Both the position numbers and the translations under genes were made by a program. The notes below the pieces were generated by a model. The model saw only the letters and a list, made by a program, of their open reading frames with translations. It ran no database searches and was not told the origin of the DNA. A stretch of 37,262 nucleotides of DNA from a candidate division WOR-3 bacterium (GTDB taxonomy: Bacteria; Hydrothermota; Tepidihabitantia; SM23-42; JAOAFX01): contig JBDRWI010000017.1 in assembly GCA_039802265.1 (NCBI GenBank), positions 1 to 37,262 on the forward strand, read 5' to 3'. The first letter of the stretch is position 1. Each line of letters begins with the position of its first letter. Shown in pieces: positions 16,891 through 37,223 of this stretch.

Positions 16891-16907
16891 TTCAATCTTT
16901 CACCAAT

Positions 16908-16935
16908 AATATACTCAAAATATGCGGGATGTCAA
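16908..16935 (-). promoter_or_regulatory. Sigma70-type promoter of the iscS-mnmA-holB operon
   Basis: Minus strand TTGACA (16935-16930), 16 bp, TATATT (16913-16908); short leader with a GGTGA SD-like sequence. Confidence 0.6.
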
Positions 16936-16959: not shown

Positions 16960-16987
16960 TTGACATTTGGCAAAATTTTAATAAAAT
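16960..16987 (+). promoter_or_regulatory. Sigma70-type promoter of the chemosensory operon
   Basis: TTGACA (16960-16965), 16 bp, TAAAAT (16982-16987); ATG 7 nt downstream; back-to-back with the iscS promoter. Confidence 0.7.
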
Positions 16988-16994
16988 AAACTAT

Positions 16995-19900
16995 ATGGAG
17001 TTTAACCTACCGGAGTCAATTATCAACCGGCTCAGGCCCTATCTTGATAGCTATGGGGAGAATTGCCAGAAATTTTTAAATGCGGGTCATCATATCGAAA
17101 GTCGACTCCAGTCAAATTCAGAGATATTAAGTGAAATCCGTCACCAGTTTGATAATCTTTCAGCAACCGTGGAATTAGTATTTGAGGGCATCTCGGTCTT
17201 TGAAAACGAAATAAAGAAGGTAAAGGAATTACTTCAGGGCAGTATAACAGATTTTAATTCATCCCTGTCAATTCTTGCTCGGCTCAGTGACGACTTAAAG
17301 AAAATTACCGAAATATTTGACGAAATCAAGGAGTCGGGTTTGCAGCTTGCTGAGATAATAAAGAATATTAATATTGTTTCGGAGGGTATTGAGGTCGCTT
17401 CCCGCAATGCGGGAATAACCGCCTTTCATGCCGGACGGCAGGGGAGGGGTTTTGAGGTCATTGCCAGGGAGATGGGTCAGCTGGTGCGCATCTCCCGGAT
17501 TCCCACGCAAAAAATTCCCTTGACTTCCTCCGAGATTTTGAGGGGAATTGAAGAGCTTACTGCCGATCTAAAGAAAATTCAAGATATAATTTCAGATTTA
17601 AACGAGATTGCAAAGAGGTTTTCCGAAATTAACGCCGAGTTGCTTACAATTATCCCCTTTGTGGAAACGAGCCTTCAGGATATAGCGGCGAGCATTATCA
17701 CCCAGAAAGATTTACAGAAGGCGCTCATGAAGGAGAACGAGAAGCTACCGCAGTACCTATCTGAAATTTATAATATTACACGGTCATCTGCCGTTACTGA
17801 GATATTTCTGTCCGCCTTCTTTCAGCATATTAACAATATCAAAGATGGCCTCTTTACTGTTAAGGACACCGATTCATTTTATAGTTTACTTAATATTTTT
17901 AAGTCTATTCTTTTCAATATACCTGACTTTGCAGAACAGGTGGAAAGATTTTTAGACCTTTCTAATCTTAAAAAAATGGAAGTCCAGACATCGGACCGGC
18001 TTATTCTTCAGTTCGTTTCAGAGGCCAATCATCTCAATGAGATTATCTCGGCAATTGCCAACAAGGTTTTGGATTGGCTGAAGGTCTATGAGACGGCTAC
18101 CGGTGTCTTGAAAAGGGCAATGGATTTCTATAAAGTGATACTGGAGATTTTGGGATTATTGCAAAAGAAACTAATCTATCTGAAAGAATCAACCAAAAAG
18201 ATTGAAGAACCACTGCGGGAATTAAAAAGGATTACCGAACGTTCAAAATTGCTCGGACTTTATGCCCGGATTGAGAGCGCGCGCAGCGGTGAGTATGCTA
18301 CCTCATTGGGTGTTGTTACCGGTGAGATCAAAAATCTGTCCGAACGAATAAGAGATTTCGTTGGTAACATTGAATTGATTGAAAAGGAGATTGAACAGAA
18401 TTTTAAGACACTCATATCCTATTTTATATGTAGCACAAGCGATGTGGAGGAAGGTATCGGTGCAATTAAGTCAGCAGTCTCTTCCGTTGATGAGGGTAAT
18501 AATGTTTTAAAAAATCTTGATTCGCTCTCCAAAGAGATGCTTTCTTCAACAAGAAATATGGTGGCGCAATGTCGGACAATTGGCGAAAAGGTCAGAATCT
18601 TTAATGATGACTATCAGAGAATCGGAGAAGATTTTGCTGCCTATCTTGAGGCAGTGAAGTCGGGCAACGAAGATTGCAAAAAAATAACAGGTATAATTAA
18701 GGGATTTGAGAAGGACATCGCCATCGTAGTGAAACAGAAACACAGGACTCTTGTCTTCCGTGATACTACCGAACCCATAATTCTAGATCCAGCAAAAAAG
18801 ACTGACGCCACAAGCCATCAGGTAATAGAACAGATTTTTATTGGACTTCTGAGTTTTGATTCGGCAAATAATCTCATTCCCGGAATTGCCAAGTCTTTTT
18901 CTGTATCCCCTGACGGTCGTTTATGGAGTTTTTCCCTGCGAGAGAATGTTAAATTTCACGATAATTCTAAAGTAACCGCAGCGGCTGTAATAAATTCGTT
19001 CCAGCGGGTAAAGCTCGGTCCGAATGCAAACTTTATTGATTACATTGAAGATATGAAATTGATCAACGAAGGCGATGTTCAGTTTGTTTTGAAGTTTCCT
19101 TATATTCCCTTTCTGGCAAATCTTGCCTGTGGTGTCTGCGATATTGTGCCCCAGGATTTTTCCGAGAGCAATCCAGTTGGCTGTGGGCCTTATCGCTTTG
19201 TCCACTGGGAGAAAGGTCGAGAGATTATCCTTGAGGCCTTTGATGACTTTTTTGATGGGCGACCAGTCATAGACCGCTGTTTAATCAAGGTTATCCCCGA
19301 TGATAAAGAGGCGGTTGAGCGATTTAAAAAAGGTGAGATATCAATTATGAGTCTTTCGGTTGATATGATGGGTGAATTTCCTCCTGATGAGATAATCTCA
19401 GGCCCGGTTCTTTCTACTCAGTATATTTCAATTAATGTTGGACTTGATTCACCCTTTAAGGACCGCCGGGTTCGTCAGGCAATGAATTATGCGATTGACA
19501 AGGAATACTACACCAAGGTTCTTTTAAAAGGACAGGCAATTCCAGCCAAGGGTATTTTTCCCCCCAATCTACCAGCATACAATAAAAATCTTGTCGGTTA
19601 TCCCTACGATTTAAAAAAGGCAAGGGAATTGATGAGGGAGGCTGGTTTTGGCGCGGGCATAAAGGAAAGTTTTATCTTTGATATCCGGGAGGATGCAGAG
19701 GTAATCTACCGTGCCGAGTTTATCAGAGATTCACTGGCAAAGATTGGTATAAACTTAAAATTGAATCCCTTACCCTGGAAGGAATTTTTAGAAAAAACTT
19801 ACAGTGGTAAAAGCATATTGAGCCTGCGCGGATGGATTTCGGACAACGGTGACCCTGATAACTTCCTTTTTCTATTTCATACAAGGAGTTTCGGTTCATC

Positions 19901-20141
19901 TGGGAATACCTCTTTTTACTCAAATGCTGAGATTGATCATTTGATTGAGTCAGCCCGCGCCGAGCAGGTTGTAAAAAGGCGGATGGAATTGTATAAAAAG
20001 ATTGAAGAGATGTTGATTTTTGATGCCCCCTGGGTTTTCCTCTCGCACGGGGTTGAAAGTTTTGTGGTTCAAAAGAATATTGGTGGCTTCCGGGTTGATC
20101 CCTTTGGTCTGGTTCGCTTCAGAAATCTTTGGTGTGAATAG
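16995..20141 (+). CDS. Soluble chemoreceptor-like protein: two MCP signalling-like domains fused to a C-terminal ABC peptide/nickel substrate-binding (family 5) domain, 1048 aa
   Basis: MCP tip motifs NAGITAFHAGRQGRGFEVIAREM and LYARIESARSGEYATSLGVVTGEIKNLSER within heptad-rich helices. From about 18744 the SBP5 motifs are LDPA, PGIAKSFSVSPDG, LRENVKFHD, PVGCGPYRF, RVRQAMNYAID and GWISDNGDPDNFL. No signal peptide or obvious TM helix. Confidence 0.85.
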   Translation: MEFNLPESIINRLRPYLDSYGENCQKFLNAGHHIESRLQSNSEILSEIRHQFDNLSATVELVFEGISVFENEIKKVKELLQGSITDFNSSLSILARLSDDLKKITEIFDEIKESGLQLAEIIKNINIVSEGIEVASRNAGITAFHAGRQGRGFEVIAREMGQLVRISRIPTQKIPLTSSEILRGIEELTADLKKIQDIISDLNEIAKRFSEINAELLTIIPFVETSLQDIAASIITQKDLQKALMKENEKLPQYLSEIYNITRSSAVTEIFLSAFFQHINNIKDGLFTVKDTDSFYSLLNIFKSILFNIPDFAEQVERFLDLSNLKKMEVQTSDRLILQFVSEANHLNEIISAIANKVLDWLKVYETATGVLKRAMDFYKVILEILGLLQKKLIYLKESTKKIEEPLRELKRITERSKLLGLYARIESARSGEYATSLGVVTGEIKNLSERIRDFVGNIELIEKEIEQNFKTLISYFICSTSDVEEGIGAIKSAVSSVDEGNNVLKNLDSLSKEMLSSTRNMVAQCRTIGEKVRIFNDDYQRIGEDFAAYLEAVKSGNEDCKKITGIIKGFEKDIAIVVKQKHRTLVFRDTTEPIILDPAKKTDATSHQVIEQIFIGLLSFDSANNLIPGIAKSFSVSPDGRLWSFSLRENVKFHDNSKVTAAAVINSFQRVKLGPNANFIDYIEDMKLINEGDVQFVLKFPYIPFLANLACGVCDIVPQDFSESNPVGCGPYRFVHWEKGREIILEAFDDFFDGRPVIDRCLIKVIPDDKEAVERFKKGEISIMSLSVDMMGEFPPDEIISGPVLSTQYISINVGLDSPFKDRRVRQAMNYAIDKEYYTKVLLKGQAIPAKGIFPPNLPAYNKNLVGYPYDLKKARELMREAGFGAGIKESFIFDIREDAEVIYRAEFIRDSLAKIGINLKLNPLPWKEFLEKTYSGKSILSLRGWISDNGDPDNFLFLFHTRSFGSSGNTSFYSNAEIDHLIESARAEQVVKRRMELYKKIEEMLIFDAPWVFLSHGVESFVVQKNIGGFRVDPFGLVRFRNLWCE

Positions 20142-20564
20142 ATGGAGACTTTGATTGTCTTTAAGATTGCCGAAGAAAAACTTGGACTTGATATTACCAA
20201 GGTTCGTGAGGTGACTGAAATAAAAGACCTGGTTCCGGTCCCCCAGGCACCGAACTTTCTGACCGGTCTGGTAAATGTGCGGGGTGAGATTGTTCCAGTT
20301 CTTTCCCTTAAGAAACGGTTTGGTTTAGAAAAGATTGAAGAGAGTAATGTATTGTTAGTTGTTGAGGACAAAGGGCGGATAGCCGGAATACGGGTTGACT
20401 CTCTTTTGGGAACAAAGAAAATTGATGAAAATAAAATCAACAGAAGTTCTGAGATTATTTCAACGAAAAAAGAAAAGGATTTCTTCCTCGGTGTTCTGGA
20501 GACTGAGGAGAGTCCGATACTCATTTTGGATTTGGCAAAGATTTTGTCAAAAAAGGGGGATTGA
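20142..20564 (+). CDS. cheW: Chemotaxis coupling protein CheW
   Basis: LIVFKI...GLDITKVREV, VPQAPNFLTGLVNVRGEIVPVLSL and GIRVD. Confidence 0.95.
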   Translation: METLIVFKIAEEKLGLDITKVREVTEIKDLVPVPQAPNFLTGLVNVRGEIVPVLSLKKRFGLEKIEESNVLLVVEDKGRIAGIRVDSLLGTKKIDENKINRSSEIISTKKEKDFFLGVLETEESPILILDLAKILSKKGD

Positions 20565-20586
20565 TGAATTTTTATAAGGAGGATAG

Positions 20587-20946
20587 ATGAGAGTTTTAAT
20601 TGTGGACGACGCAATGTTTATGCGTCGTATGCTCAGTGACATTTTAGAAAAGGGTGGACATACAGTCTGTGGCGAGGCAGCAACTGGAAAAGAGGCAGTA
20701 GAAAAATATAAAGAATTGAAGCCCGATTTGGTCACGATGGATATCATTATGCCGGATATGAGCGGTATTGAGGCAGTAAAGGAGATAAAGAAGTTTGACC
20801 CCAAGGCAAAGATTCTTATGGTTTCAGCAATGGGTCAGCAGGCGCTGGTGCTGGAGGCGGTACAGGCAGGGGCAGTTGACTATGTTGTTAAACCCTTTCA
20901 GCCATCGCGGGTTTTGGAGTCCATTGAGCGGATAACGAAAAAATGA
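20587..20946 (+). CDS. cheY: Single-domain response regulator CheY
   Basis: VLIVDDAMFMR, PDLVTMDIIMPDMSG, VSAMGQQ and VVKPF (Thermotoga/Bacillus-like CheY); SD AAGGAGG. Confidence 0.93.
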   Translation: MRVLIVDDAMFMRRMLSDILEKGGHTVCGEAATGKEAVEKYKELKPDLVTMDIIMPDMSGIEAVKEIKKFDPKAKILMVSAMGQQALVLEAVQAGAVDYVVKPFQPSRVLESIERITKK

Positions 20947-20978
20947 ACTTCCGGGGAATTCTGTATAGTCTTTAAATT

Positions 20979-22484
20979 ATGGAAGAATATTTAGAGCTCT
21001 TCATCAGCGAAACCGAGTCATACATAAAACAGATGAATGACCAGCTCTTAATTTTAGAAGGTAACAATCGGAATAAAGATTCTATCCTTGAAGTTTTTCG
21101 CATTTTGCACACCATAAAAGGGATGGCACAGACAATGGGTTTTGAAGAAATTGCGACTGTTTCCCACAAGGCTGAAGACCTCCTCGGTGATGCTAAAAGT
21201 AAGGGTGAAATCAATCCCCGGGTCCTGTCATTTCTCTTTACAGTTGCTGATTACATAGCCAATGCAGTGCAGATGATAAAAGAGAAAAATCCGTTACCGG
21301 ATCCCCAGCAGATTGTTCAAGTCCTTGAAGAGCTTGCCCGTGGTAAAGAAATAGAATTTAGTGGTCAGGGAATTACGACAAGGGAAATCTCTGAGATAAG
21401 AATAAAGACAGAAAAACTGGATAAACTCTTTAATCTTACCAACGAATTACTTATTACTCGCTCCAGACTTCTTATGGTTAGCCAAAAAATTGGTGATAGT
21501 GAAATGGTTGATGTTTGCGAAACAGCCGGAAGGTTAATATCGGCATTGCAGGATGAGGTTATGCGATTGCGAATGCTTCCTGTTTCTACAGTCTTTGATT
21601 TCTTCCCACGCTGGGTAAGGGATGAGGCAAAGAGGCAGAATAAAGAAGTTGATTTTGTTATTAGCGGTGGTGAACTGGAAGTGGACCGTTCCATAATTGA
21701 TGTTTTAAAAGAGCCGATTATGCATCTTTTGCGGAATGCCCTTGACCATGGCATTGAAAAGAAGGGAAGGATTACACTTGCTGCCCAAAAAGAAAAGGAG
21801 TTTGTCAGAATCAGTGTCAGTGATGATGGTCGGGGTATTGATCCGGAAGAGATAAGGGAAAAGGCAATAGAGAAAAAGATTGTTGAGCCGATGGTTGCCC
21901 AGCGTTTAACAAAGGATGAGCTATATAGGTTGCTCTTAAGACCAGATTTTTCAACCAAGAAGGAGACCACCGAGATTTCTGGTCGTGGGATAGGGCTGGA
22001 TATCGTATATTCCACGGTTACCGAACTGGGCGGCCGAGTGGAGATTGCCTCGGAAAAGGGTAAGGGTTCAATTTTTACCATTGAATTACCACTCAGTCTT
22101 GCCGTTCAGCGTGCGATGGTCTTTGCGTTGGATGGTCAGCGTTTTGCCATTCCTTTAAATTATATAACCGAATCATTTTATATTGAAGAAAGTGAAATAA
22201 AGACAGTTTATGGTCGGGAATTGATTGCATTGAGGGATGATATCCTGCCCCTTGTGCGTCCGGGTAACAGGTTGAATTGTGTTTCCCGTCCCGGCCGAAA
22301 ATCAGTGATTGTTGTTCGTTATCGTAACACCCAGAGGGGTTTTGTTGTTGATGAGATTATTGCTGAGGATGAACTGGTGGTAAAGAAGATTGACCCGCTT
22401 CTGCCCGGCTCACTCTATGCTGGTTGTGCAATCTATGCAGATGGCAAGCCGATTTTAATTTTAGAGCCAAGGGGGTTTGAATGA
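20979..22484 (+). CDS. cheA: Chemotaxis histidine kinase CheA (P1-P3-P4-P5, no P2)
   Basis: Hpt FRILHTIKGMA, dimerisation LDKLFNLTNELLI, N box HLLRNALDHGIE, G1 DDGRGID, G2 SGRGIGLDIV and C-terminal CheW-like P5; only 501 aa. Confidence 0.95.
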   Translation: MEEYLELFISETESYIKQMNDQLLILEGNNRNKDSILEVFRILHTIKGMAQTMGFEEIATVSHKAEDLLGDAKSKGEINPRVLSFLFTVADYIANAVQMIKEKNPLPDPQQIVQVLEELARGKEIEFSGQGITTREISEIRIKTEKLDKLFNLTNELLITRSRLLMVSQKIGDSEMVDVCETAGRLISALQDEVMRLRMLPVSTVFDFFPRWVRDEAKRQNKEVDFVISGGELEVDRSIIDVLKEPIMHLLRNALDHGIEKKGRITLAAQKEKEFVRISVSDDGRGIDPEEIREKAIEKKIVEPMVAQRLTKDELYRLLLRPDFSTKKETTEISGRGIGLDIVYSTVTELGGRVEIASEKGKGSIFTIELPLSLAVQRAMVFALDGQRFAIPLNYITESFYIEESEIKTVYGRELIALRDDILPLVRPGNRLNCVSRPGRKSVIVVRYRNTQRGFVVDEIIAEDELVVKKIDPLLPGSLYAGCAIYADGKPILILEPRGFE

Positions 22485-23089
22485 TTGATACCAAAAACCT
22501 GACACCAAGGCAACTTGACGCACTGACCGAGGTTGCAAACATTGGCGGAGGTCATGCAGCCACTTCCCTGTCTCAGTTACTGGGTAAGAAGGTAATGATC
22601 AGGGTACCCACTCTCTTTACCGGTCCATTAGAAGATGTAATCCTGAAGATTGCCGACCCCAATGATGTTGTTGCCTCGGTACTGCTTTATTTCCTTGGTG
22701 ATCTTACCGGTCGGACCCTTCTCATCTATCCCTATGAAGATGCCCAAGAATTGACAAATCTTTTAATGCCGGAAAATCAGGAGAGTACATTAGAATTACA
22801 GGAATCGTTATTGAAGGAAGTTTCCAATATTCTATCCTGTTCGTATATGAATGCCCTTGGTGAGTTATTGGGACTTCTGATACTACCTTCGGTACCGGGA
22901 ATGATTATTGATATGGTCGGTGCAGTTCTTTCCAGTGTCATTGTTGAGTTTGGTCATGAAAAGGACTTTATCTTCTGTATTGAGACGGAATTTGATTTTG
23001 GTGATGTAAGTAAACCATTGCGTGCCTATTTCCTCCTCCTTCCTGATACTTCAAGTTTAGAATTGATTCTTAAAAAACTTAATGTATAA
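22481..23089 (+). CDS. cheC: CheY-P phosphatase CheC
   Basis: Two ExxN motifs: LDALTEVANIGGGHAATSLS and SLLKEVSNILSCSYMNAL; SVP motif. Confidence 0.93.
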   Translation: MIDTKNLTPRQLDALTEVANIGGGHAATSLSQLLGKKVMIRVPTLFTGPLEDVILKIADPNDVVASVLLYFLGDLTGRTLLIYPYEDAQELTNLLMPENQESTLELQESLLKEVSNILSCSYMNALGELLGLLILPSVPGMIIDMVGAVLSSVIVEFGHEKDFIFCIETEFDFGDVSKPLRAYFLLLPDTSSLELILKKLNV

Positions 23090-23094
23090 TTTTT

Positions 23095-25479
23095 ATGATA
23101 TCGCCTGAGGAATATAAGATACTCAAGAGTTTTGCCGAGCGAATTCCGGATAATGACCCCGGGGCACACAATAATCTTGCAGTGGTTTATTACAACAAGG
23201 GTCTTTATGAAGAGGCAATTGCCGAACTGGAGAAGGCACTGGCGATAGACCCGAACTTTCTACTTGCCCGAAACAATCTGGAGATTATCTTAAAAAAATC
23301 GGGACGCCTGGAAAATAAGGTAAAGGAACTTGCCTACCGCATTGAATCGGAGCCTTTTGATGAGATAAAGACACTGGAACTTGCGGATACATATCGTAAA
23401 TTGAATCGCTATTCCCAGGCAATAATCTTCTACCGAAAGGTCTTGGATTTTAATCCTGGCTCTTATGAGGCACATTTTGGTTTAGGATTGACCCTCAAGA
23501 GTCTTGGCAAATACGATGATGCCCTTGAGGAGATAAAGAAGAGTCTGGAGATAAAGATTTCACCGGAGGGCTACAGGGTTTTGGGTGAGATTTATTTCAA
23601 TAAGGGGGCAATCGACCTGGCAATTAAGAACTTTCAGGAATCCCTTCTTTTGGACCCGGATTCAGCCGAGACCCACTTCTTTCTGGGGTTTGCCCTTGGT
23701 GAAAAGGGAAAACATAAAGAGGGAAGAGAAGAGGTTAGAAAGGCGATAGAGTTGAATCCGGCACTGGCGCAATTTGAACCCAATTTACCCATAGAAATAA
23801 AGGAGCACAAAAGCCACCTTGATTTTCTAAAAGAGCAACTGGGAGTGCCCAAACCATCGGTCAATGAGTATCAGGTCCACTATAACCTCGGTTTGACCTA
23901 TCGCAATAAAGGTCTTTTTACCGAAGCCCGGCGTGAATTTGAAGATTGTCTGAAGATAAAATCCGATGATGTTGATCTCTATGTAATGATGGGTGAGGTC
24001 TCAATCTTTCTTGAAAAATTTGATGACGCATTAAATTATTTTGAGCGCGGTCTACAGCTTGACCCGCTTCAGCCAAGGTGTGCGAATGGCTTGGGAATTG
24101 TCTTTTTAAAGAGGCATGATTACAAACAGGCTCAGGGCTGGTTTGAAAAGGCATTAGCCTGGGATAAAGGCTTGCTTTCCGCATTGAATAACCTGGCAGT
24201 TATTCAGCTGGTTCAAAACAATCTTGAGGAGGCAATAAAGAATTTTACGACGGCAAAAGATGCTGGGAACGAAGAGGCGAAATATAATCTTGGTGTCTAT
24301 TATCTCAAAAATGGGGACTATGAAGGTGTATTAAAGTTATTTAATGAAGATACGGTTGATGGTAATTTCTTAAGGGGATTGGTCTTTGCAGAATTGGGAC
24401 GGGATGATGAGGCGGTTAGCTGTTTCAACGGAGTGATTAACCGCGCACCCAACTATGCCGGTGCATACTACAATTTGGGATTTCTTTATATGAAGATGGG
24501 AAGGTTTGAAGAAGGACTTTCCTTTATCCGTAAGGGTATGGAGATCGAGCCAAATTACGAAAAGGAAAAATTTCGGCTGTCTTTAGCCCCTGAGCTTTAT
24601 GAATATGGCTTGTTCTACCAGGCACCCAAGCCCGAAGAAAAACTGGTTGAAGAAATAGAAGAGGTCTTCCCCAAACTTGAAATTCCCACTGCCGAGAATT
24701 TTATCGCTGAGGCAGAGCGTCTCCTTGGCAACAAAAATTTCGAAAAGGCGCTGGAGATGGTGGACGAGGCAATCAAAATCAATCCCGATTTAAGTTCGGC
24801 GGTTGTCCTCAAGAGCAAAATCTTGTTTCAGTCTGACAATATTGAAGATGCAATCAATCTACTCAATACCTTTACGCAGACTCATCCTGATGATACCGCG
24901 ACCATCGCGGCTTTGGCGGGTTATCTCAAATCATTGGGAAGGTTGAAGCAGGCAAAGGATAAGTATCAACGCCTTCTTGAGTTGGAACCTGAAAATGTTA
25001 CCTGGCTTTCCGAGATTGGTGATATTTTCTATTCCCTTGATGAGATTGATGAGGCATTTGCTACATATAGAAAGTTATTATCAATTGATAGCAAAAATGT
25101 GAATGCTCATTTGGGTCTCCTTAAGGTCCATTTGAAGAAAAAAGATTTAGACCGTGCGAAGGAATTTGTTGATTTCTTTGAGCGGGAAGGCGTCAATTCG
25201 TATGAAGCCAATCTTTGCGTTGGCATCTACTGGTTGGAAAGGAATAATCGTGAAAGGGCAAGAAGTTATTTAGAAAAGGCAATTGAAATTGACCCGTCAA
25301 AGCCCCTTCCTTATTATCATCTCGGTCTTTTGTTTGTTAACGAAGGCAAATTTGATGAGGCCTGTACAAACTGGAAGAAGGCACTCCTTTTAAGCCCCAA
25401 TGAGGAACTGGCGAATAAGATAAGCCATTGCCTCAGCATTACGATGGAAATGATGGAATTTTTAAAGAAAGAGATTTAA
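23095..25479 (+). CDS. Large tetratricopeptide repeat protein (794 aa)
   Basis: Many TPRs, e.g. AHNNLAVVYYNKGLYEEAIAELEKALAIDP, HYNLGLTYRNKG and AYYNLGFLYMKMGRFEE; no signal peptide. Confidence 0.9.
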   Translation: MISPEEYKILKSFAERIPDNDPGAHNNLAVVYYNKGLYEEAIAELEKALAIDPNFLLARNNLEIILKKSGRLENKVKELAYRIESEPFDEIKTLELADTYRKLNRYSQAIIFYRKVLDFNPGSYEAHFGLGLTLKSLGKYDDALEEIKKSLEIKISPEGYRVLGEIYFNKGAIDLAIKNFQESLLLDPDSAETHFFLGFALGEKGKHKEGREEVRKAIELNPALAQFEPNLPIEIKEHKSHLDFLKEQLGVPKPSVNEYQVHYNLGLTYRNKGLFTEARREFEDCLKIKSDDVDLYVMMGEVSIFLEKFDDALNYFERGLQLDPLQPRCANGLGIVFLKRHDYKQAQGWFEKALAWDKGLLSALNNLAVIQLVQNNLEEAIKNFTTAKDAGNEEAKYNLGVYYLKNGDYEGVLKLFNEDTVDGNFLRGLVFAELGRDDEAVSCFNGVINRAPNYAGAYYNLGFLYMKMGRFEEGLSFIRKGMEIEPNYEKEKFRLSLAPELYEYGLFYQAPKPEEKLVEEIEEVFPKLEIPTAENFIAEAERLLGNKNFEKALEMVDEAIKINPDLSSAVVLKSKILFQSDNIEDAINLLNTFTQTHPDDTATIAALAGYLKSLGRLKQAKDKYQRLLELEPENVTWLSEIGDIFYSLDEIDEAFATYRKLLSIDSKNVNAHLGLLKVHLKKKDLDRAKEFVDFFEREGVNSYEANLCVGIYWLERNNRERARSYLEKAIEIDPSKPLPYYHLGLLFVNEGKFDEACTNWKKALLLSPNEELANKISHCLSITMEMMEFLKKEI

Positions 25480-25494
25480 GCAGGTAGGTAAAAG

Positions 25495-26397
25495 ATGGCA
25501 GACGAATTGATTATGGACTCCAAGGCCCTGATCTTTGCAACACTGGCCGATGTCTATCTCAGTTCCGGGATGATTGATGAAGCAATTTCAATCCTGCAAG
25601 ATGGTTTGACCAGGAATCCAAACTATACACTGGCAAAGGTTATCCTGGGACGGGCATATTATTTAAAGGGCAACATTGATGAGGCATTGAAAATTCTACA
25701 GGAGAATTATGAATCGGCCAAAGGAAGCGAGACCTTGAATCTCTATCTCGGACATTGCTACAAAAAGAAGGGGGAATATGAGAAGGCAATTGGTTATTAT
25801 GAAGCGGTACTCAAAATAAATCCCGAAAATCGTGAGGCGAAGGAGTCATTGGAGGTCTTGAAACCAACTCAACCATTGCAAAAGCCCGCATCTGAAGCAA
25901 TTGTTGAACAACCACCAGCAAAACCCCAGCCGGAGATGGTTGCCATTCCGAAGACCGATGTTGAACCCACTGCACCGACCGAGCTATTACCAGAACTCGG
26001 ACTTGAACCAATGCCTGCCCGGGCGGTTGAAGTGCCCGCACCCCTTGAGGCACTCAATGAACCGATGGGTCGCCTTCTGGAGATAAAGTCAGTGAAGGGG
26101 GCATTTATCCTTTCCCGTGATGGCCTTTTGATTCAGAACTATTATGCGGCGAGAACTGATTTGGAAGAAATCTGCGCCTTAATCGCGGGTATATTCAATG
26201 AGGCTGATGAGGCATTTAAATTCTTGAAATGTGGGGCACTGGAAAGATGTATTATTGAGAAGAAGGAAGAGACAATCTGTGTTATTACGGCCGGTGAGTC
26301 GTTGCTCTGTATTATTACAAAACCCGAGGCAAAGCCCGGGCTTGTCTTTTTGTATGCAAAGAAGATTATTGAGGAAATCAGGAAGGTATTAGGATGA
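25495..26397 (+). CDS. TPR - proline-rich linker - Roadblock/LC7 (MglB-like) fusion protein
   Basis: Three N-terminal TPRs, a P/E/A-rich linker, then VKGAFILSRDGLLI...ICALIAGIF...LLCIITKPEAKPGLV (Roadblock pattern). Confidence 0.85.
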   Translation: MADELIMDSKALIFATLADVYLSSGMIDEAISILQDGLTRNPNYTLAKVILGRAYYLKGNIDEALKILQENYESAKGSETLNLYLGHCYKKKGEYEKAIGYYEAVLKINPENREAKESLEVLKPTQPLQKPASEAIVEQPPAKPQPEMVAIPKTDVEPTAPTELLPELGLEPMPARAVEVPAPLEALNEPMGRLLEIKSVKGAFILSRDGLLIQNYYAARTDLEEICALIAGIFNEADEAFKFLKCGALERCIIEKKEETICVITAGESLLCIITKPEAKPGLVFLYAKKIIEEIRKVLG

Positions 26398-26693
26398 TGT
26401 TATCAGAATTAACCAGAATACCTCGTGTCTTCGGCGCGGGTATAGCAACCTTTGATGGTTTTATCGTTGATAGCCAGTTCATTCATGGCTATGATGCTGA
26501 GCGATTCGGCGCGATGGCGGCCAAGATTATGACCCAGGTAAAAAAGAACCTCGGTGCGGAGAGCGGTGCGGTTATTCTTTATACACAAGACATTGTCTTT
26601 CTTGCCAAGGCAAAGCCGGAGGGGGTTCTCTTTGTAGTTGGTGACAAAGAGGCAAATCTGGGACTTATTAAAATAAAATTTGAGAAGATGTAG
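26394..26693 (+). CDS. Stand-alone Roadblock/LC7 domain protein (MglB/MglC-like)
   Basis: GAGIATFDGFIVDS...AERFGAMAA...LFVVGDKEANLGLIK; ATGA overlap with the upstream gene. Confidence 0.82.
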   Translation: MMLSELTRIPRVFGAGIATFDGFIVDSQFIHGYDAERFGAMAAKIMTQVKKNLGAESGAVILYTQDIVFLAKAKPEGVLFVVGDKEANLGLIKIKFEKM

Positions 26694-26697
26694 TCTT

Positions 26698-26799
26698 TTT
26701 TGACCTGACGCAAGTTAGGCCAGGGATGAATTGCGATCTACAAAACATCTATCGCAGCCATTGAAGGGGCGGGAAATCCAGTGTTTGCGGTATCCCACC
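26698..26799. other. Three-hairpin structured intergenic element (candidate ncRNA or non-autonomous mobile repeat)
   Basis: CCTGAC-GCAA-GTTAGG (26704-26719, GNRA loop), TGCGAT/ATCGCA (26732-26737/26751-26756) and GGCGGGA/TCCCACC (26768-26774/26793-26799, one mismatch). Confidence 0.45.
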
Positions 26800-26834
26800 T
26801 GAGTATCTTGTTAAAGAATTACGAACAAACCGCA

Positions 26835-26863
26835 TTGACACCAGGATTCCTTATGGGTATGAT
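26835..26863 (+). promoter_or_regulatory. Sigma70-type promoter of pcm
   Basis: TTGACA (26835-26840), 17 bp, TATGAT (26858-26863); leader carries an AAGGAG SD. Confidence 0.62.
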
Positions 26864-26900
26864 CAACGCCCATCTAACTCAAAAAAAGGAGAGGATAGAG

Positions 26901-27635
26901 ATGAAATTTTTCTTAGGGTCATTACCCTTCTTATACAGATATATCATCATTACCACAATTGCCATTTGCTGCTCGTGCACCGAAAATACGAAAAAGGAGC
27001 ATTTATGGTATGAAGTCGCCCGAAAGGAGATGGTGGAGAAGCAGATAATTGCGCGGGGCATCAGTGATAAGGGTGTGATCCAGGCAATGCTCAGGGTTGA
27101 AAGGCATAAATTTGTGCCCAAGGAGTATGAGCGCTATGCCTATACTGATGGGCCATTACCCATTGGTGAGGGGCAGACCATTTCCCAACCCTATATCGTT
27201 GCCCTTATGACCGAGGTTTTGCAGCTGAAGGGAGGGGAGAGGGTATTAGAGATCGGCACTGGCTCAGGGTATCAGGCAGCGGTTCTTTCGCTTATTGCCC
27301 AGGAGGTATATACCATTGAAATCATCCCGGTACTGGCAAAGTCAGCACAACACCGGCTTGCGAATCTCGGGTATAAGAATGTCTATGTGCGGTGCGGGGA
27401 TGGTTTTTTAGGCTGGCCCGAAAAAGCACCTTTTGACGGTATTATTATTACCTGTGCTGCCCCACGAGTTCCCGAACCTTTAGTTGAACAACTCGCCGAA
27501 GGGGGAAGACTGGTTATGCCCGAGGGTGACCAATTCCAGATGCTTGTATTATACAAAAAGGTTAAGGGTAAATTGGAGAGACAGGAGCTCATTCCTGTTC
27601 GCTTTGTGCCGATGGAAGGCAAGATAAGGGAATGA
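26901..27635 (+). CDS. pcm: Protein-L-isoaspartate(D-aspartate) O-methyltransferase
   Basis: RHKFVP, PLPIGEGQTISQPYIVALMT, VLEIGTGSGYQAAVL, GDGFLGWPEKAPFD and VRFVPM; ATG at 26901 follows the SD. Confidence 0.96.
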   Translation: MKFFLGSLPFLYRYIIITTIAICCSCTENTKKEHLWYEVARKEMVEKQIIARGISDKGVIQAMLRVERHKFVPKEYERYAYTDGPLPIGEGQTISQPYIVALMTEVLQLKGGERVLEIGTGSGYQAAVLSLIAQEVYTIEIIPVLAKSAQHRLANLGYKNVYVRCGDGFLGWPEKAPFDGIIITCAAPRVPEPLVEQLAEGGRLVMPEGDQFQMLVLYKKVKGKLERQELIPVRFVPMEGKIRE

Positions 27636-28953: not shown

Positions 28954-29955
28954 ATGAAAAGGATAACATTTATCCTTGCCGTTGTCTTCTTGAGCAGTAT
29001 TGCTCAGGAGACAACGCATACTGTAAAACCAGGTGATACCCTCTGGGATATTGCCGGGTTTTACTATCAGAATCCGTTTTTGTGGCCCTATATATGGCGG
29101 GCAAATCTCACCCAGATAGAAGACCCGCACTGGATATATCCGGACCAGGTCTTTGTAATTCCACCCGCGCCTGAGGAATCCTTGGGTATCGTTGCTCCAC
29201 CACCCACTGAATATGTCTATGCCCCAACTCCGAGTAAAAAGGTTGCTGAAGTCATCTCGGTCGTAAAGCCGGAAGAGCGCATTTTCAGCGAGGAGATTAT
29301 CCATCGTGCCGGATTTATTGTTCTGGAAGACTTGCCTTACTGGGGAAAGATTCTTGAGACCGAGCCCAAGGGTGAAAAGAATATTACTACCTACACAGAG
29401 ATATACATTGACCGCGCTCAGGATGTGAAGACTGGTGATATATTGACAATCTATCGTCCAGGCAAGGTTATTACCCACCCCAAGACCGGTAAAACATTGG
29501 GAAAAGAGATTTTGGTCCTTGGTAAGGCTGAAGTAGAGGAAGTTGGGGCTGATGGTTCAAGGTGCAAGGTCATTGCATCCTATGATATAATTAAAGATGG
29601 TGACTTCGTTACGCCTTATGAACCGATTCTGGCACCAGAGAATGTAAGCCTTGTGCCGGCGACAAAGGAGGTAGAGGGTTATGTTGTTGAGGTGAAATCA
29701 ATAGGTAATTTGACCCCACCCCATGTTTTTGTCTATATTGACCAGGGTGAAGAGAGCGGGGCTGCGGTTGGTGATGTCTATGAAGTCTACCAGGAGCGGG
29801 TTGTTGAGGGAAAAAAGATGCCCGATTTTCCAGTCGCCAGGGTTCAGGTAGTAAGTGTCTTCGCAAATGCCTCAGTTGGTCTAATATCTTGGGAAAGAGA
29901 GACCGTAGTGGTGAAGAGGGGAGAGCGGTGCAGGTTGAAGATGGAGGCACGGTAA
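28954..29955 (+). CDS. Exported LysM peptidoglycan-binding protein, TsaP-like
   Basis: Sec signal MKRITFILAVVFLSSIA-QE, then HTVKPGDTLWDIAGFYYQNPFLWPYIWRAN..QIEDPHWIYPDQ, and two beta-rich C-terminal modules (IYID...GD). Confidence 0.82.
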   Translation: MKRITFILAVVFLSSIAQETTHTVKPGDTLWDIAGFYYQNPFLWPYIWRANLTQIEDPHWIYPDQVFVIPPAPEESLGIVAPPPTEYVYAPTPSKKVAEVISVVKPEERIFSEEIIHRAGFIVLEDLPYWGKILETEPKGEKNITTYTEIYIDRAQDVKTGDILTIYRPGKVITHPKTGKTLGKEILVLGKAEVEEVGADGSRCKVIASYDIIKDGDFVTPYEPILAPENVSLVPATKEVEGYVVEVKSIGNLTPPHVFVYIDQGEESGAAVGDVYEVYQERVVEGKKMPDFPVARVQVVSVFANASVGLISWERETVVVKRGERCRLKMEAR

Positions 29956-29998
29956 TGGAGATGGAAATTAGGGGAATTATAATTAGGGAGGTAAGAAA

Positions 29999-30463
29999 AT
30001 GAAGGAAAAGGAGGCATTAAGTCAGGTTTATCTATTCAGGGAATTGACACCGAGTGAGATGGATATATTAATCTCAATCTCCAAGGAAAGAAGGGTAAAG
30101 AAGAATGAGGTAATCTTTAAAGAGGGCGACCCCGGCGATGCCTTCTATCTTATTGTTTCAGGTAGTGTGCGTATCTCCACGGTCGTCCCGGGCGTGGGCG
30201 AAGAGGCATTGACCATCCTGCGCGAGGGTGAGTATTTTGGTGAGATGGCACTGATTGACGATGCCCCCCGTTCGGCTGCGGCGATTGCCAATGATGATAC
30301 AATTCTATTGTCAATTGGAAAAGAAGATTTCCGTCGTCTCCTTGCCCAGGATACAGGGATTGCCTATAAGTTACTTTGGGTATTTACAAGGACACTCTGT
30401 GCCCGTTTGCGAAAGACCGACGAGCAACTCAAGAGCATATTCTCAATAGCAAAGACATTCTAA
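29999..30463 (+). CDS. Stand-alone cyclic nucleotide-binding domain protein
   Basis: IFKEGDPGDAFYLIVSGSVRI and phosphate-binding cassette GEYFGEMALIDDAPRSA; no HTH; SD GGGAGG. Confidence 0.92.
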   Translation: MKEKEALSQVYLFRELTPSEMDILISISKERRVKKNEVIFKEGDPGDAFYLIVSGSVRISTVVPGVGEEALTILREGEYFGEMALIDDAPRSAAAIANDDTILLSIGKEDFRRLLAQDTGIAYKLLWVFTRTLCARLRKTDEQLKSIFSIAKTF

Positions 30464-30527
30464 TTTAATGGTAAAGAAAGGAGAACAGGGTTAAAGAAGG
30501 TTAAATAAAGGTTAAAGAAGGACAAAA

Positions 30528-30851
30528 ATGGGTAGAATTGTTTTGCTGCTTCTAACATTATCATTGATTGTGGAGCGGATTACTGAGAAGATACTATCCC
30601 TTTTGCCGAAAAAGAACAATAAATATTTTGCCTGGATTATTACAATCATCCTTGGCCTGTTGATTTCTTTCAGTTTCCGGTTTGCTTTTTTACAGGAATT
30701 GGGTTTGAAGGAGGGTACAAATGTCAGTCAGGTCGTTGATTATATCTTGAGCGGTATTTTGATTGCCTGTGGCAGTGAACCTGTTCATTCAATCGTTGAT
30801 GCCCTTTCATTTAAAAGGGATGAATTGAAACGAAAGGCAAAAGGTGTTTGA
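30528..30851 (+). CDS. Small three-helix membrane protein (putative holin-like family)
   Basis: Three hydrophobic segments, IVERITE and ILSGILIACGSEPVH motifs, basic C-terminus. Confidence 0.65.
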   Translation: MGRIVLLLLTLSLIVERITEKILSLLPKKNNKYFAWIITIILGLLISFSFRFAFLQELGLKEGTNVSQVVDYILSGILIACGSEPVHSIVDALSFKRDELKRKAKGV

Positions 30852-33800
30852 TATATTTGCGGGTAAGGACCCTCAGAAGGCACTCCAGCGGGCGCATGAG
30901 TTGATTAAAGAGGGAAGGAGTACCCAGGCGATCAGGGTCTTGCAGGATAATCTCACCCAGGGCGAAGAATCATTTGACCTTTATTTAGAACTTGCCCGAC
31001 TGTACTTTGAAAACGAGCAGAGACCGGAGGCAGTTGAGACATTACGAAACTGCTATTCATTTTTTCCCAACAGGGTTGATGAGATAATCGGCCTCTTATC
31101 CGATTATTTTTACCGTTATACCTCAATTGATGCAGGTGATTTTCTAATTCAACTTTATACCCGGGAGGGTCAGTATGACGAGGTTGCCAAGGTCCTGAGG
31201 GCGTTCAATGAGCGGGAGATAAAACTTTTAACCAATAAATATGAAAAGTTGAAACAGGGGTTAGGGGAGAAGAAGGTTTTGAGTAAACGTGACCTTGAGA
31301 TTATCATAATCCTTGGGACAATAAATTTTCTCTATCGGGAACCCCAATCGGCAATTGAGGCGGTAGAGTCCGTCGTTGAAATAGACACATTTCAGAAAGA
31401 GCTCATTGCCTGGGCAAGGACAATTTCGCGTGAACGATTCAATGACCCCTATCCCGCGCTTCTGCTTCTTAGGTTATTAATTGCCTCAAAAAATTTTACC
31501 GAGGCACTAACCCAGGCACAGCGCATTTATGAAAAATTTCCCGATTTCTTGGACCCCCTGATTGAAATGGTTTCAAAGGCGCAACCACCCCGGGAGTTAG
31601 AATCCAATTTCAGTGAATTCCTAACTGAGTTATATGTAAAGAAAGGTGACCTTGATGCATCACTCGCCCGCTTGCAACTCATCTTGAAGAATGAACCATC
31701 CCGGATTGATGAGGTGATAAAGACCCTTCGTGAATTGCAGCGGATAAATCCCAAAAACTTGAAGGTTCTTTATATCCTGGGGGATACCCTGCTCAATAGC
31801 GGACGGGTATCACTGGCAATCAGTGAATATGAAAAGATTCTGGAGATGGATAGCGGTGAGGCAGAGAAGTTGATTCAAAGATATCGACGGGCATTTGAAA
31901 AGGAACCGAATAATCCATTGGTGATTCAAAGTCTGGTTAACTTGTATCTCAAACAGAATAAACTTGATGATGCAGTAGCGTTAATTGAGCGGGCTTACAA
32001 TTTCGATCCAGGGCTTTTGGACGAGTATATCCTCAACCTCAACGCAATACTGGAAAAAGACCCCGGTAATTTTGGTGCTTTAAAAATCCTCGGTTTGTGT
32101 CTGGCACATAAGGGCGATGACGAAAATGCCGGTTTGATTATTGAAAACTTAATGGAAAACGGTAAAAATGAGATTGTCGGTGAGATGCTTGATGAGATAA
32201 TCAAGAAAAAGCCAAAAGATAATATATATGTTAATCTAAAGGCAAAAAATTTAATCGCCTTGGATAGAATAGGTGAGGCATTTTCACTAATTGCACCCAA
32301 CCTTGACGATGATTTGAACAAGACAATCATATTTGTACCGACCCTGGACGCGATTGTGAATAAAAAACCTGAATATGCACCTCAAATACTAAATTTTTAT
32401 AAAACAAAAGAGAATGAAGCGCCCGATATCTTTGGTGTTGCCCTGGCAAGGGCATATGCTTATGTTGGTGATTATGAAGGTTCTATTAAAAAATTTGACG
32501 AATGTTTTTCAAAACTGGAGCATAAAGATGCGGTAAAAAGGGCACTGATAGAGGTACTCAAAGAAAGACCCAAGGCAGTCCCCCTTCTCTTGAGTGCCGC
32601 CCGGATATTTATGAAAGAAGGAGAGATTGAGATTGCCACGCAATTTTTCAAGACTGCCCAGATGGTAGACCCCAAGGCATTCTTTGAGATTGTTGATGAA
32701 TTCTATGACACACTCAAGAATTTCCCGAAAGATAAGGAAGTGCGGATTTTGTTGATTGATACCTTTTTTAATCGGAAGCTCTATGACCGAGTGATTGAGG
32801 AGGCAAAGAAGGGAATAGAGGTCTTTGGTCAAAATGTCCAGTATTTTAACTTAAAATTGGGGCAGGCACTTGTAGAAAAGGGTAACTTGACTGATGGGGT
32901 AAGACCGCTGATGCTCGCCCTTGATGGAGAGATGGACTATTCAAAGGAGGTTTTGAGTTATCTGGATAAGATTCTTGAGGTGGATAAAAGCAATGTTCCG
33001 GCACACTTTGCCCGGGGTCGGGCACTTGCCCGTTGCCGGATGATTGATGAGGCAGTTGATGAGTATCTGCTTACTGCCCGAATCGTACCGGCGCGTGCTG
33101 AATATGTATTAGAAGAGTTAAAAAATCTCCTAACGAAGGCAATTACCAATCCCAAGTTAATTTATGCCATTGGAAATGTGGAAATTACGCTGAAGAGGTA
33201 TGAAGATGGGATAAGGCATCTCCTCCAGGCCTGCGAACTTGATTCTAATTTTGTCAGCCGGGCAATTCCAATATTTGAGAAGATGATTTATGAATTTCCC
33301 TCTCCTTTCCTTGAATTTTCCCTTGCCCGGCTCTATTCAATGGCAAACTTAAATAATTCGGCAACAAAATACTTCATTTTAGCCCAGGAGCACGATAAAA
33401 AATACCTTGAACCGGCAATCTCCGAATTGAAGAAAATCTGCGCCGAAGAATCCAAGGACACAGAATCCCGCAAGGGACTGGCACAGATCTATTTCAATTA
33501 CAATAACCTGGAGGATGCCCTGAATTTAACTGCAGAGATTTACCGATTAAATCCGAATGAGACAGACTGGGTGAAGTCATTTGTTTTTAATATCCTTTCC
33601 AAGAATGCCACCCATTTACCTTCCTATTATTTTATCGGCACAGTATTCCTGCAGGAAGGAAATTATCCGAAGGCACTGGAGGTCTTTAAAAAATTGCTTG
33701 ATATTGCACCCGGTGAGATTATGGAGGTGATTAAAAGACTCTCCGAATACAAAGAAAAAAGCCCGGAGGTGATGTTTCATCTGGCAAAACTCCACAAGGA

Positions 33801-36854: not shown

Positions 36855-36863
36855 AGGGGGCCT

Positions 36864-37223
36864 ATGGAATTTCTCAAAAAATTGAAAAAGGATAAAAAGG
36901 CTGAATCGGTATTTGATCTGTTGATTGAAAAGAAGCAGAAGAAAGAAGAAATTGAGGAAAGACCACCAGATATGGAGGTCACCGAAATCAGTCCGGAAAA
37001 GGCACCCCCACCGGTAATTCAGGAAAAACCCGAACCGACCCCGAAGCGTGAATTTAGAACCGAAGGAATGCATGAATTTGATATCGAAAGTCTTGGTGCC
37101 TCGACGAGTGCCGGTTTAAAGATTGAATATAAAGCAAGGATTGTCGCATTGATTGATGAAGATAAAATCGACGAGGCGATTGCATTGTTGCAAGAACTCA
37201 AAGAGAAACTCAAAGGTTTATAG
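36864..37223 (+). CDS. Hypothetical protein (charged, Pro-rich linker, C-terminal helical hairpin)
   Basis: SD-like AAGGGGG, same strand as and tightly spaced with its neighbours, 119 aa. Confidence 0.7.
   Translation: MEFLKKLKKDKKAESVFDLLIEKKQKKEEIEERPPDMEVTEISPEKAPPPVIQEKPEPTPKREFRTEGMHEFDIESLGASTSAGLKIEYKARIVALIDEDKIDEAIALLQELKEKLKGL

Follow-up and report, generated by a model that had tools for sequence, protein, structure and literature searches.

The 37,262-nucleotide (nt) stretch of DNA analysed here (the window), contig JBDRWI010000017.1 of a candidate division WOR-3 bacterium, contains at positions 16995..26693 an eight-gene chemosensory (che) operon, which almost certainly supplies the kinase part of a chemosensory pathway that is capable of methylation and split over two loci. 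The cheR, cheD and cheB genes reside on contig C3 of the source genome, G000 (2.3 Mb, 89% complete); C numbers designate the contigs of this genome, other G numbers genomes, L numbers loci, and f and g numbers families and genera. In both halves the che genes are mixed with genes for TPR, Roadblock/LC7, ATPase or PATAN proteins (the scaffold), to which they are probably coupled in function. The final target, with the Che proteins upstream, may well be the motor of type IVa pili.

The two halves of the pathway

The eight open reading frames (ORFs) of the operon share one orientation, are separated by successive gaps of 0, 22, 32, -4, 5, 15 and -4 nt, and are ordered, according to Pfam, as receptor, CheW, receiver, CheA, CheC, TPR, TPR-Roadblock and Roadblock. 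The layout given in the initial annotation, eight co-oriented genes after one promoter, was confirmed, and the promoter-like site is retained: a site scoring at least 10/12 lies 6-10 nt before the ATG in all 29 orthologous loci, versus 6 of 600 coding-region control windows. Judged by sequence, the operon is real and conserved, and its genes may be co-transcribed; since the promoter-like site lies so close to the first ATG, the mRNA is probably leaderless.

The window had also been described as lacking cheR, cheB, cheD, flagellar and mglA genes. This holds for the 30 window ORFs covered by the Pfam scan (the first three ORFs, 3-2675, lay outside it), among which CheR, CheB, CheD, flagellar families and small GTPases had no match; for the methylation genes it does not hold for the genome. 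A genome-wide search for che-type matches yielded one CheR and one receiver-bearing CheB in G000, both on contig C3, in a run of genes comprising RB137 (an MglB paralogue, E 5e-12 to MglB), a tandem DnaA-like AAA+ ATPase, a DUF4388 (PATAN)-TPR protein of 535 amino acids (aa), cheR, cheD, cheB and a 293-aa TPR protein. The catalytic motifs of CheA, CheY, CheC, CheB, CheD and CheR are all present in G000.

Conservation, splitting and loss among WOR-3 relatives

Among 120 genomes of the WOR-3 class, CheA was matched at E <= 1e-30 in 37, of which G082 and G034 were dropped (CheA in another context), leaving 35; CheR matches numbered 38, and the removal of three weak ones likewise left 35. CheR accompanies this CheA in 33 of the 35 genomes; the two without it have a completeness of 81% and 67%. 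All six regions read from families f1 and f2 retain the eight genes in full order; in the two genomes of family f3, the receptor gene and cheW are not at that site. In G001 (L067) both halves form a single run, namely receptor, cheW, cheY, cheA, cheC, TPR, TPR-Roadblock, a 99-aa ORF at the position of RB99 (the 99-aa Roadblock protein of the operon), DnaA-like ATPase, PATAN-TPR, cheR, cheD and cheB. The second half was present in 16 of the 18 cheR regions read; the remaining two were other cheR genes. The neighbourhood analysis thus bore out a che-TPR-Roadblock order conserved in relatives. A second, different che cluster with cheA, cheB and cheR occurs in G080 and G082 (L062, L071); G080 adds cheY and cheC.

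Genus g7 has the scaffold without the che genes. In its 11 genomes, cheA and the receptor are absent (0/11 each), and TPR794 (the 794-aa TPR protein of the operon), mglA and pilB were found in 11/11, 11/11 and 10/11, respectively. The first g7 locus reads TPR794, TPR-Roadblock, RB99 and pcm with no che gene upstream (4/4 regions), and in the second, RB137, ATPase and PATAN-TPR directly join suhB (3/3 regions). Loss of che genes at two unlinked loci indicates that cheR, cheD and cheB are tied to this CheA and that the scaffold is kept without Che; because the genomes are kin, it counts as one event rather than eleven. On these sequence comparisons, the TPR/Roadblock/ATPase/PATAN scaffold stands on its own, and Che is a part that can be detached from it. 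Directly upstream of RB137 in two g7 regions (L261, L262) are parA/parB-like genes, named by eye from their N-terminal sequence.

The compact pathway proposed in the initial annotation, with signal termination by CheC and without methylation, is contradicted by these results: a larger cluster has the operon as one of its halves, with cheR, cheD and cheB on C3, the association of CheR with this CheA across the relatives, and their joint loss in g7.

A related cluster in Gemmatimonadota

A locus scan with a DUF4388-TPR alignment (Gemmatimonadaceae query) gave 555 loci, of which the best 80, nearly all titled Gemmatimonadota, were examined, gene content being scored by tblastn. The order begins with cheW, cheY, cheA, cheC, TPR, a second DUF4388 protein, TPR-Roadblock, Roadblock, MglB-like Roadblock and mglA, and continues with tandem ATPase, DUF4388-TPR, cheR, cheD, cheB, cheW-like genes and TPR. 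Among these best 80 loci, the 32 of full length contain mglA in 32, TPR794 in 32, cheA in 31, cheC in 31 and cheR/D/B in 29, and the tandem DnaA-fold ATPase is found in 79 of the 80. No methyl-accepting chemotaxis protein (MCP) match was seen inside the Gemmatimonadota clusters. A further 20 regions were picked to span the range of CheC scores: cheY-cheA-cheC and mglA lie on one stretch in 17, two are incomplete, one (L173) is without the TPR/Roadblock/mglA block, and cheR is present in 11. Three loci (L126, L127 and L146) have the scaffold with a CheY-like gene directly before the TPR gene and no cheA, cheC or cheR/D/B; five others (L086, L093, L169, L175 and L181) contain cheA and cheC without cheR/D/B, an observation at the level of the locus.

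A CheC-like match was found in 98 of 151 Gemmatimonadota genomes, a FliG match in 42 and both in 27, so that 71 of the 98 genomes with a CheC-like match have no FliG match; these tallies include the unpublished G181 and G221 as well as incomplete assemblies, and the gene context was read for 20 of the 98. By these counts a CheC-like match has a similar frequency in genomes with flagella (27/42) and in those without them (71/109).

Che and scaffold proteins

The best PDB match of CheA is Thermotoga maritima CheA (E 7e-73; the next full-length CheA, 6e-66), and its best NCBIfam model is CheA_Halo, below the cut-off of that model. Pfam matched neither a P2 domain nor a receiver domain in CheA, and in the absence of the latter it is not a hybrid kinase of the FrzE type. 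The spacing from the phosphorylatable His to P3 is 91-96 aa in eight WOR-3 orthologues and about 200 in most Gemmatimonadota orthologues. Among the four CheW-domain matches in G000, the only kinase-borne one is that of the window CheA; the others are single-domain CheWs, and the triple CheW of DosM and the F9 class was thus not found. Conservation of CheY was considered as a mark of a new partner and dropped, the T. maritima CheY being about as close.

TPR794 matches generic TPR models only, and its Gemmatimonadota orthologue has about 900 aa. In the ESM Atlas, its residues 1-300 retrieved generic TPR clusters, the first of them mainly from Gemmatimonadota. A complex prediction for CheY and full-length TPR794, both entered as alignments, scored 0.00 and carries no weight either way.

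The Roadblock domain of the TPR-Roadblock protein contains the Asp-Gly pair of the orphan/MglC-type signature in the 13 orthologues displayed, and its best PDB matches are generic Roadblock proteins, neither MglB nor MglC; no entry named MglC is among its seven PDB matches. In RB99, D21, G22 and G90 are invariant across an alignment of 42 WOR-3 and Gemmatimonadota orthologues; its profile retrieves Roadblock folds and, weakly, MglB (E 5e-4), and none of the 45 PDB matches is named MglC. MglC (MglB_orphan1) has an Asp beside the invariant Gly, D26-G27, according to the accessible part of PMC4719450, and the same pair marks MglB of Groups 2-5 in that of PMC4316618; it is therefore not specific to MglC.

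The 615-aa ATPase of contig C3 (G000:C3:6671-8518; L054:1672-3516) consists of two DnaA-type AAA+ modules, and Pfam and NCBIfam gave no match to the DNA-binding C-terminus of DnaA. Its profile had 150 matches, and among the 20 looked up, a taxon name was attached to two clusters alone (WOR-3 and Gemmatimonadota). Automatic annotations name the tandem ATPase DnaA, and in some matches of 1100-1400 aa the module is at the C-terminus.

MglA GTPases

A genome search for mglA, one of the genes whose presence bears on the initial annotation, returned two copies in G000. Contig C35 carries mglB-mglA (MglA, E 5e-84 to 6HJH; MglB, E 4e-37), and this MglA has the features of Group 1, namely the arginine finger, the TVPGQ motif and a coupled MglB. 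The second gene, mglA2, lies at G000:C14:9638-10255 (L055:6648-7256), and its product has Gln at the intrinsic arginine-finger site in all 15 WOR-3 sequences. Every Group-1 MglA protein keeps the Arg according to the part of PMC4316618 accessible to us; a Group-1 MglA without the finger departs from that statement. In WOR-3 second-half loci, mglA2 is directly upstream of RB137 in 5 of 16, and likewise in G082. It is also kept in g7 despite the loss of che genes.

All five Gemmatimonadota genomes tested encode both a canonical and a cluster MglA. The cluster MglA retains the finger Arg in 85 of 88 sequences (three unparsed) and has an Arg in the P-loop. Orthology between WOR-3 MglA2 and the Gemmatimonadota cluster MglA was considered and is not supported by the tree. 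In L254 (G007:C12:208594-212043), which comes from a family without a PilB match, mglB precedes four tandem mglA genes, and two of these encode Lys in place of the finger Arg.

Flagella and type IVa pili

FliG and FliM were not found in G000, within its 89% completeness; none of 48 genomes of the order had a flagellin match, and FliG gave one weak match in the 120 genomes of the class. The bacterium apparently has no flagellum, to judge by gene content. The pilus genes of G000 include two PilB above the TIGR02538 cut-off, PilC, PilM, five further PilT-sized ATPases and 10 ORFs with a prepilin motif, and every family with TPR794 also has PilB above the cut-off. Pili are the sole motility machine found in G000, where no search for gliding machinery was made.

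The genome searches thus divide the initial annotation. The type IV pilus genes and mglA for which it suggested a search are present, and the missing fliM and fliG favour its non-flagellar part; cheR, cheB and cheD tell against its methylation-free part. Its proposed Roadblock/GTPase output is partly sustained by the conserved gene order and by mglA in the Gemmatimonadota cluster, an output to MglA or to pili being drawn from gene context.

A soluble receptor with two hairpins

The receptor of the operon has no hydrophobic segment above 1.6 (maximum 1.53). Its AlphaFold2 model (pLDDT 88, pTM 0.67) shows a DppA-like domain and a pair of long hairpins whose tips fall near residues 146 and 431; a model of residues 1-582, based on 26 sequences, gave pLDDT 87 and pTM 0.64. 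The C-terminal domain aligned to DppA with a TM score of 0.85 by target. Two single-chain four-helix bundles could be superimposed on the model, 1yo7 over 120 of 120 residues (root-mean-square deviation, rmsd, 1.9; model residues 114-465) and 6z0c over 198 of 199 (rmsd 2.2). Since the 120-residue bundle spans model residues 114-465, both tips are read as lying at one end. A Foldseek search with the N-terminal model returned mainly non-specific coiled coils. The two tips diverge from the canonical MCP tip, at complementary positions, and the hairpin arms have about 141 aa. The models suggest that the receptor is a single-chain four-helix pseudo-dimer with a cytoplasmic binding domain of the DppA/OppA type, a family whose default ligands are peptides. 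If so, it would represent a natural single-chain chemoreceptor dimer with unequal tips, which could help in asking which face of a receptor binds CheA and CheW.

A homologue search yielded 68 proteins among the best 7999 candidates, those with a taxon name being all WOR-3 or "bacterium". Most operon-bearing genomes carry two such tandem-MCP receptors with a solute-binding domain, and in G000 the paralogue (G000:C4:33588-36884, L058) adjoins a gene for a 726-aa coiled-coil protein. G000 also encodes two membrane MCPs, in which 155 residues follow the tip, the arm length of the 44H class as assessed by length alone. One of them, on contig C93, has five methylation-consensus sites. The C93 locus (G000:C93:3119-6489, L059) consists of an ExeA-like AAA ATPase gene, cheW, the membrane MCP gene and cheW; an ExeA-like gene follows cheB in 6 of the 80 Gemmatimonadota loci.

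Proposed mechanism and alternatives

We lean towards a pathway in which an F1-like Che core steers type IVa pili through the MglA/Roadblock/PATAN module. From known Che biochemistry, the soluble receptor and the two membrane MCPs would set CheA activity via CheW; CheA would phosphorylate CheY and CheB, CheC with CheD would strip the phosphate, and CheR, CheB and CheD would adapt the receptors. From gene context, phosphorylated CheY (CheY~P) would, without FliM, act on the TPR/Roadblock/MglA/AAA+/PATAN scaffold, which would set the pole or the timing of pilus extension and would probably touch PilB and PilC through the PATAN protein. As PATAN is fused here to TPRs and not to a receiver, phosphate would have to reach it indirectly. 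Two phyla share a gene order in which che and scaffold genes interleave and overlap, which suggests the link between Che and scaffold. Three further points suggest the link to pili: PATAN (DUF4388) binds PilB1 and PilC in Synechocystis (accessible part of bioRxiv 10.1101/2021.06.11.447907), SgmX is a TPR protein that binds MglA-GTP and activates pili (accessible part of PMC7668184), and pili are the only motility machine found.

A bolder and distinctly less probable proposal is that WOR-3 and Gemmatimonadota share an undescribed chemosensory class. It would combine an F1-derived core with, in WOR-3, a pseudo-dimer receptor for cytoplasmic peptides; CheY~P would switch the second MglA (finger-less in WOR-3, with an altered P-loop in Gemmatimonadota) via three Roadblocks and the tandem DnaA-fold ATPase, and PATAN-TPR would relay the signal to the type IVa pilus motor. 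Such a circuit from kinase to small GTPase would have arisen apart from Frz.

Several observations weigh against the pilus-directed pathway. Gene order tells no direction of signalling, and the CheY homologue of Dif acts as a phosphate sink (PMC4671073, accessible part). The receptor of the operon has one strict methylation-consensus site, 481-490, in which E485 is kept in 58 of 71 sequences and position 486 is Q in 42, L in 14 and E in 5. The high conservation of CheY is not special, given the comparably close T. maritima protein. PATAN-TPR has an incomplete motif of the cyclic di-GMP (c-di-GMP) type: of 120 homologues, 30 contain two half-motifs, 77 contain one and 13 contain none, and the strict pattern has no match in the G000 protein. 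Locus L173 (G196) contains che genes and PATAN-TPR without the TPR/Roadblock/mglA block. As for MglA, neither mglA of G000 adjoins either half, WOR-3 MglA2 groups with canonical MglA (100/100) and not with the Gemmatimonadota cluster MglA in a tree of 41 rows (bootstrap not fully converged; one WOR-3 canonical sequence), and WOR-3 mglA2 lies on the other side of RB137 from the Gemmatimonadota cluster mglA; given these last two points, simple inheritance does not account for the mglA link in WOR-3. The co-occurrence with pili is weak, because PilM is near universal in Gemmatimonadota (146/151) and the overlap of PilB and TPR794 in WOR-3 (46 and 46 of 120 genomes) represents a single clade. Finally, mglA occurs without a PilB match in families f5, f6 (11/11 versus 0/11), f8, f10 and f12, so that the role of MglA in this class does not always concern type IVa pili.

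The alternative that survives best, though unlikely, is a reversed flow as in Dif: the scaffold, through pilus or MglA state, would localise or feed Che, CheY would be a sink cleared by CheC, and the output of CheA would be an unlinked regulator of adhesion, polysaccharide or c-di-GMP. Dif has the same set of MCP, CheW, CheA, CheY and CheC, with DifD as sink and EpsW as the true output (accessible part of PMC4671073), and the lack of a FliM target in G000, the survival of the scaffold after Che loss and a weak MshE-type c-di-GMP motif match in the second PATAN protein of the Gemmatimonadota cluster (32 bits, below the cut-off of 38) fit this scheme. A complete CheR/CheB/CheD set and a dedicated sensing domain, however, suit an input that senses gradients, and the CheY-like gene stays directly before the TPR gene in L126, L127 and L146 despite the loss of cheA.

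Somewhat less likely still is a scaffold under Che control whose target is a polar process other than pilus action, for instance division, chromosome handling, secretion or gliding, with the tandem DnaA-like ATPase as its driver. The five families with mglA but no PilB, the near-constant presence of this ATPase in the cluster and the parA/parB-like genes just upstream of RB137 in two g7 regions would agree with such a role. PilB above the cut-off in all TPR794 families argues for pili instead, as do the binding of PATAN domains to the pilus motor where tested, in the accessible part of the record, and the missing match of the ATPase to the DNA-binding C-terminus of DnaA.

It is improbable that nothing but common regulation or history has made neighbours of the che and scaffold genes, without direct signalling between them. 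The repeated loss of che genes with the scaffold kept (g7; L126, L127 and L146) and L173, with che genes but without most of the scaffold, would be expected on this account; two phyla nevertheless preserve the interleaved order of che, scaffold and che, with overlapping genes, and even after the split each WOR-3 half has genes of both kinds. A compact, methylation-free pathway reset by CheC alone, to which the window without cheR/B/D and the five loci with cheA and cheC but no cheR/D/B could be taken to point, is refuted for G000 by gene content and highly improbable, as its cheR, cheD and cheB carry catalytic motifs, have one CheA to serve and are lost together with cheA in g7.

Operon features and neighbouring genes

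The features of the operon are listed in Table 1. A TTG start at 16827 was considered for the receptor gene and dropped in favour of M1 at 16995, which is conserved and comes after the promoter-like site. A divergent promoter-like site (16906-16935, minus strand) for an iscS-mnmA operon stands back to back with the che site. Downstream, pcm (isoaspartyl methyltransferase, 26781-27635) follows the operon in many relatives, including g7 without che genes, and has a separate promoter-like site at 26835-26863. The region 28954-37223 contains genes for LysM, cNMP-binding, 107-aa unknown, 1243-aa TPR, 760-aa coiled-coil/TPR and 119-aa unknown proteins; those of them scanned against NCBIfam gave no specific family match. 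Reads of run X1, probably DNA and possibly from the source sample, are present in all 30 bins.

Table 1. Predicted features of the chemosensory operon, in window coordinates
Feature	Position	Strand	Evidence
sigma70-type promoter-like site	16960..16987	+	TTGACA-16-TAAAAT, 11/12 consensus; -10 box ends 7 nt before ATG
soluble chemoreceptor, 1048 aa	16995..20141	+	Pfam MCPsignal x2 + SBP_bac_5
cheW	20142..20564	+	Pfam CheW E 1.8e-31
cheY, Thermotoga-like	20587..20946	+	T. maritima CheY best PDB match, E 2e-50; D7/D8, D52, S80, K102
cheA, 501 aa	20979..22484	+	Pfam Hpt + H-kinase_dim + HATPase_c + CheW; P1-P3-P4-P5
cheC phosphatase	22481..23089	+	Pfam CheC x2; T. maritima CheC E 2.5e-27; E-x-x-N sites E17/N20, E113/N116
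TPR794, 794-aa soluble TPR scaffold	23095..25479	+	Pfam TPR; no transmembrane segment
TPR + linker + Roadblock/LC7 domain	25495..26397	+	Pfam Robl_LC7 E 3.4e-11, 43 bits, above cut-off
RB99, 99-aa Roadblock/LC7 protein	26394..26693	+	Pfam Robl_LC7 23.2 bits, at cut-off

Comparison with known systems

The occurrence of CheC and CheD alongside CheR and CheB is a trait of the F1 class (Thermotoga maritima, Bacillus and archaea), and G000 has all four. The best solved matches of CheA, CheY and CheC are T. maritima proteins, and together with gene content these PDB matches suggest that the Che core is F1-like. Unlike F1 systems, FliM, FliG and flagellin were not found here, CheA is without P2, the receptor is a tandem soluble fusion, and the che genes are embedded among TPR/Roadblock/PATAN/AAA+ genes. 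F1 usually uses 44H receptors (PMC6943060), as does F9 (PMC9321776), and archaea without FliM use CheF (PMC10117864), each as given in the accessible part of the source.

As in DosM of the F9 class, the receptor has two tandem signalling domains and no membrane anchor. In the accessible part of PMC9321776, 98% of DosM homologues have no sensory domain, and a triple CheW is described; here, in contrast, there is a DppA-like domain and a single CheW, and the model places the two tips together at the same end, whereas DosM reportedly occupies both baseplates. The cyanobacterial Tax systems with PatA-type (PATAN-REC) regulators likewise join a Che pathway to a PATAN domain, but here PATAN is fused to TPRs instead of a receiver, and MglA and Roadblocks are added. 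The Dif system of Myxococcus has the same gene order and also lacks P2. To our knowledge, it has no cognate CheR or CheB. It shares the set of MCP, CheW, CheY, CheA and CheC (PMC4671073, accessible part), and differs from the present system in the CheR, CheD and CheB, the soluble receptor and the linked Roadblock/PATAN scaffold found here.

A literature search, beyond whose reach lay most subscription journals and the supplements of bioRxiv 10.1101/2021.06.11.447907, returned no description of this cluster, and the accessible parts of PMC8050422, PMC7509429 and PMC4546325 contain nothing on it. The closest record in print is a supplement row of PMC4316618 (accessible in part), where GAU_1409 of Gemmatimonas aurantiaca T-27 is given as PATAN>MglA>-PATAN with che genes unlisted; by this row, the cultured strain probably carries the cluster. 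New here are the receptor as a predicted single-chain pseudo-dimer with a cytoplasmic DppA-like domain and a WOR-3 MglA2 without the arginine finger. The findings suggest an undescribed route from chemical sensing to pilus-based surface behaviour.

If the pilus-directed pathway holds, the system most resembles Frz-MglA/MglB/MglC/RomR with SgmX in Myxococcus xanthus, with Che proteins, a Group-1 MglA, several Roadblocks and a TPR scaffold in a piliated cell. It differs in having stand-alone CheA, CheC and CheD instead of the FrzE hybrid kinase, and we know of no counterpart of the tandem DnaA-like ATPase in the Myxococcus Frz system. Myxococcus has its mglA away from the genes of its partners (PMC4316618, accessible part), whereas here a second mglA lies within the che cluster or next to it in Gemmatimonadota and some WOR-3. 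In Myxococcus, with its dispersed genes, the step from Che to a small-GTPase polarity switch has yet to be explained; the candidate parts packed in one cluster across two phyla provide a short list of proteins to test.

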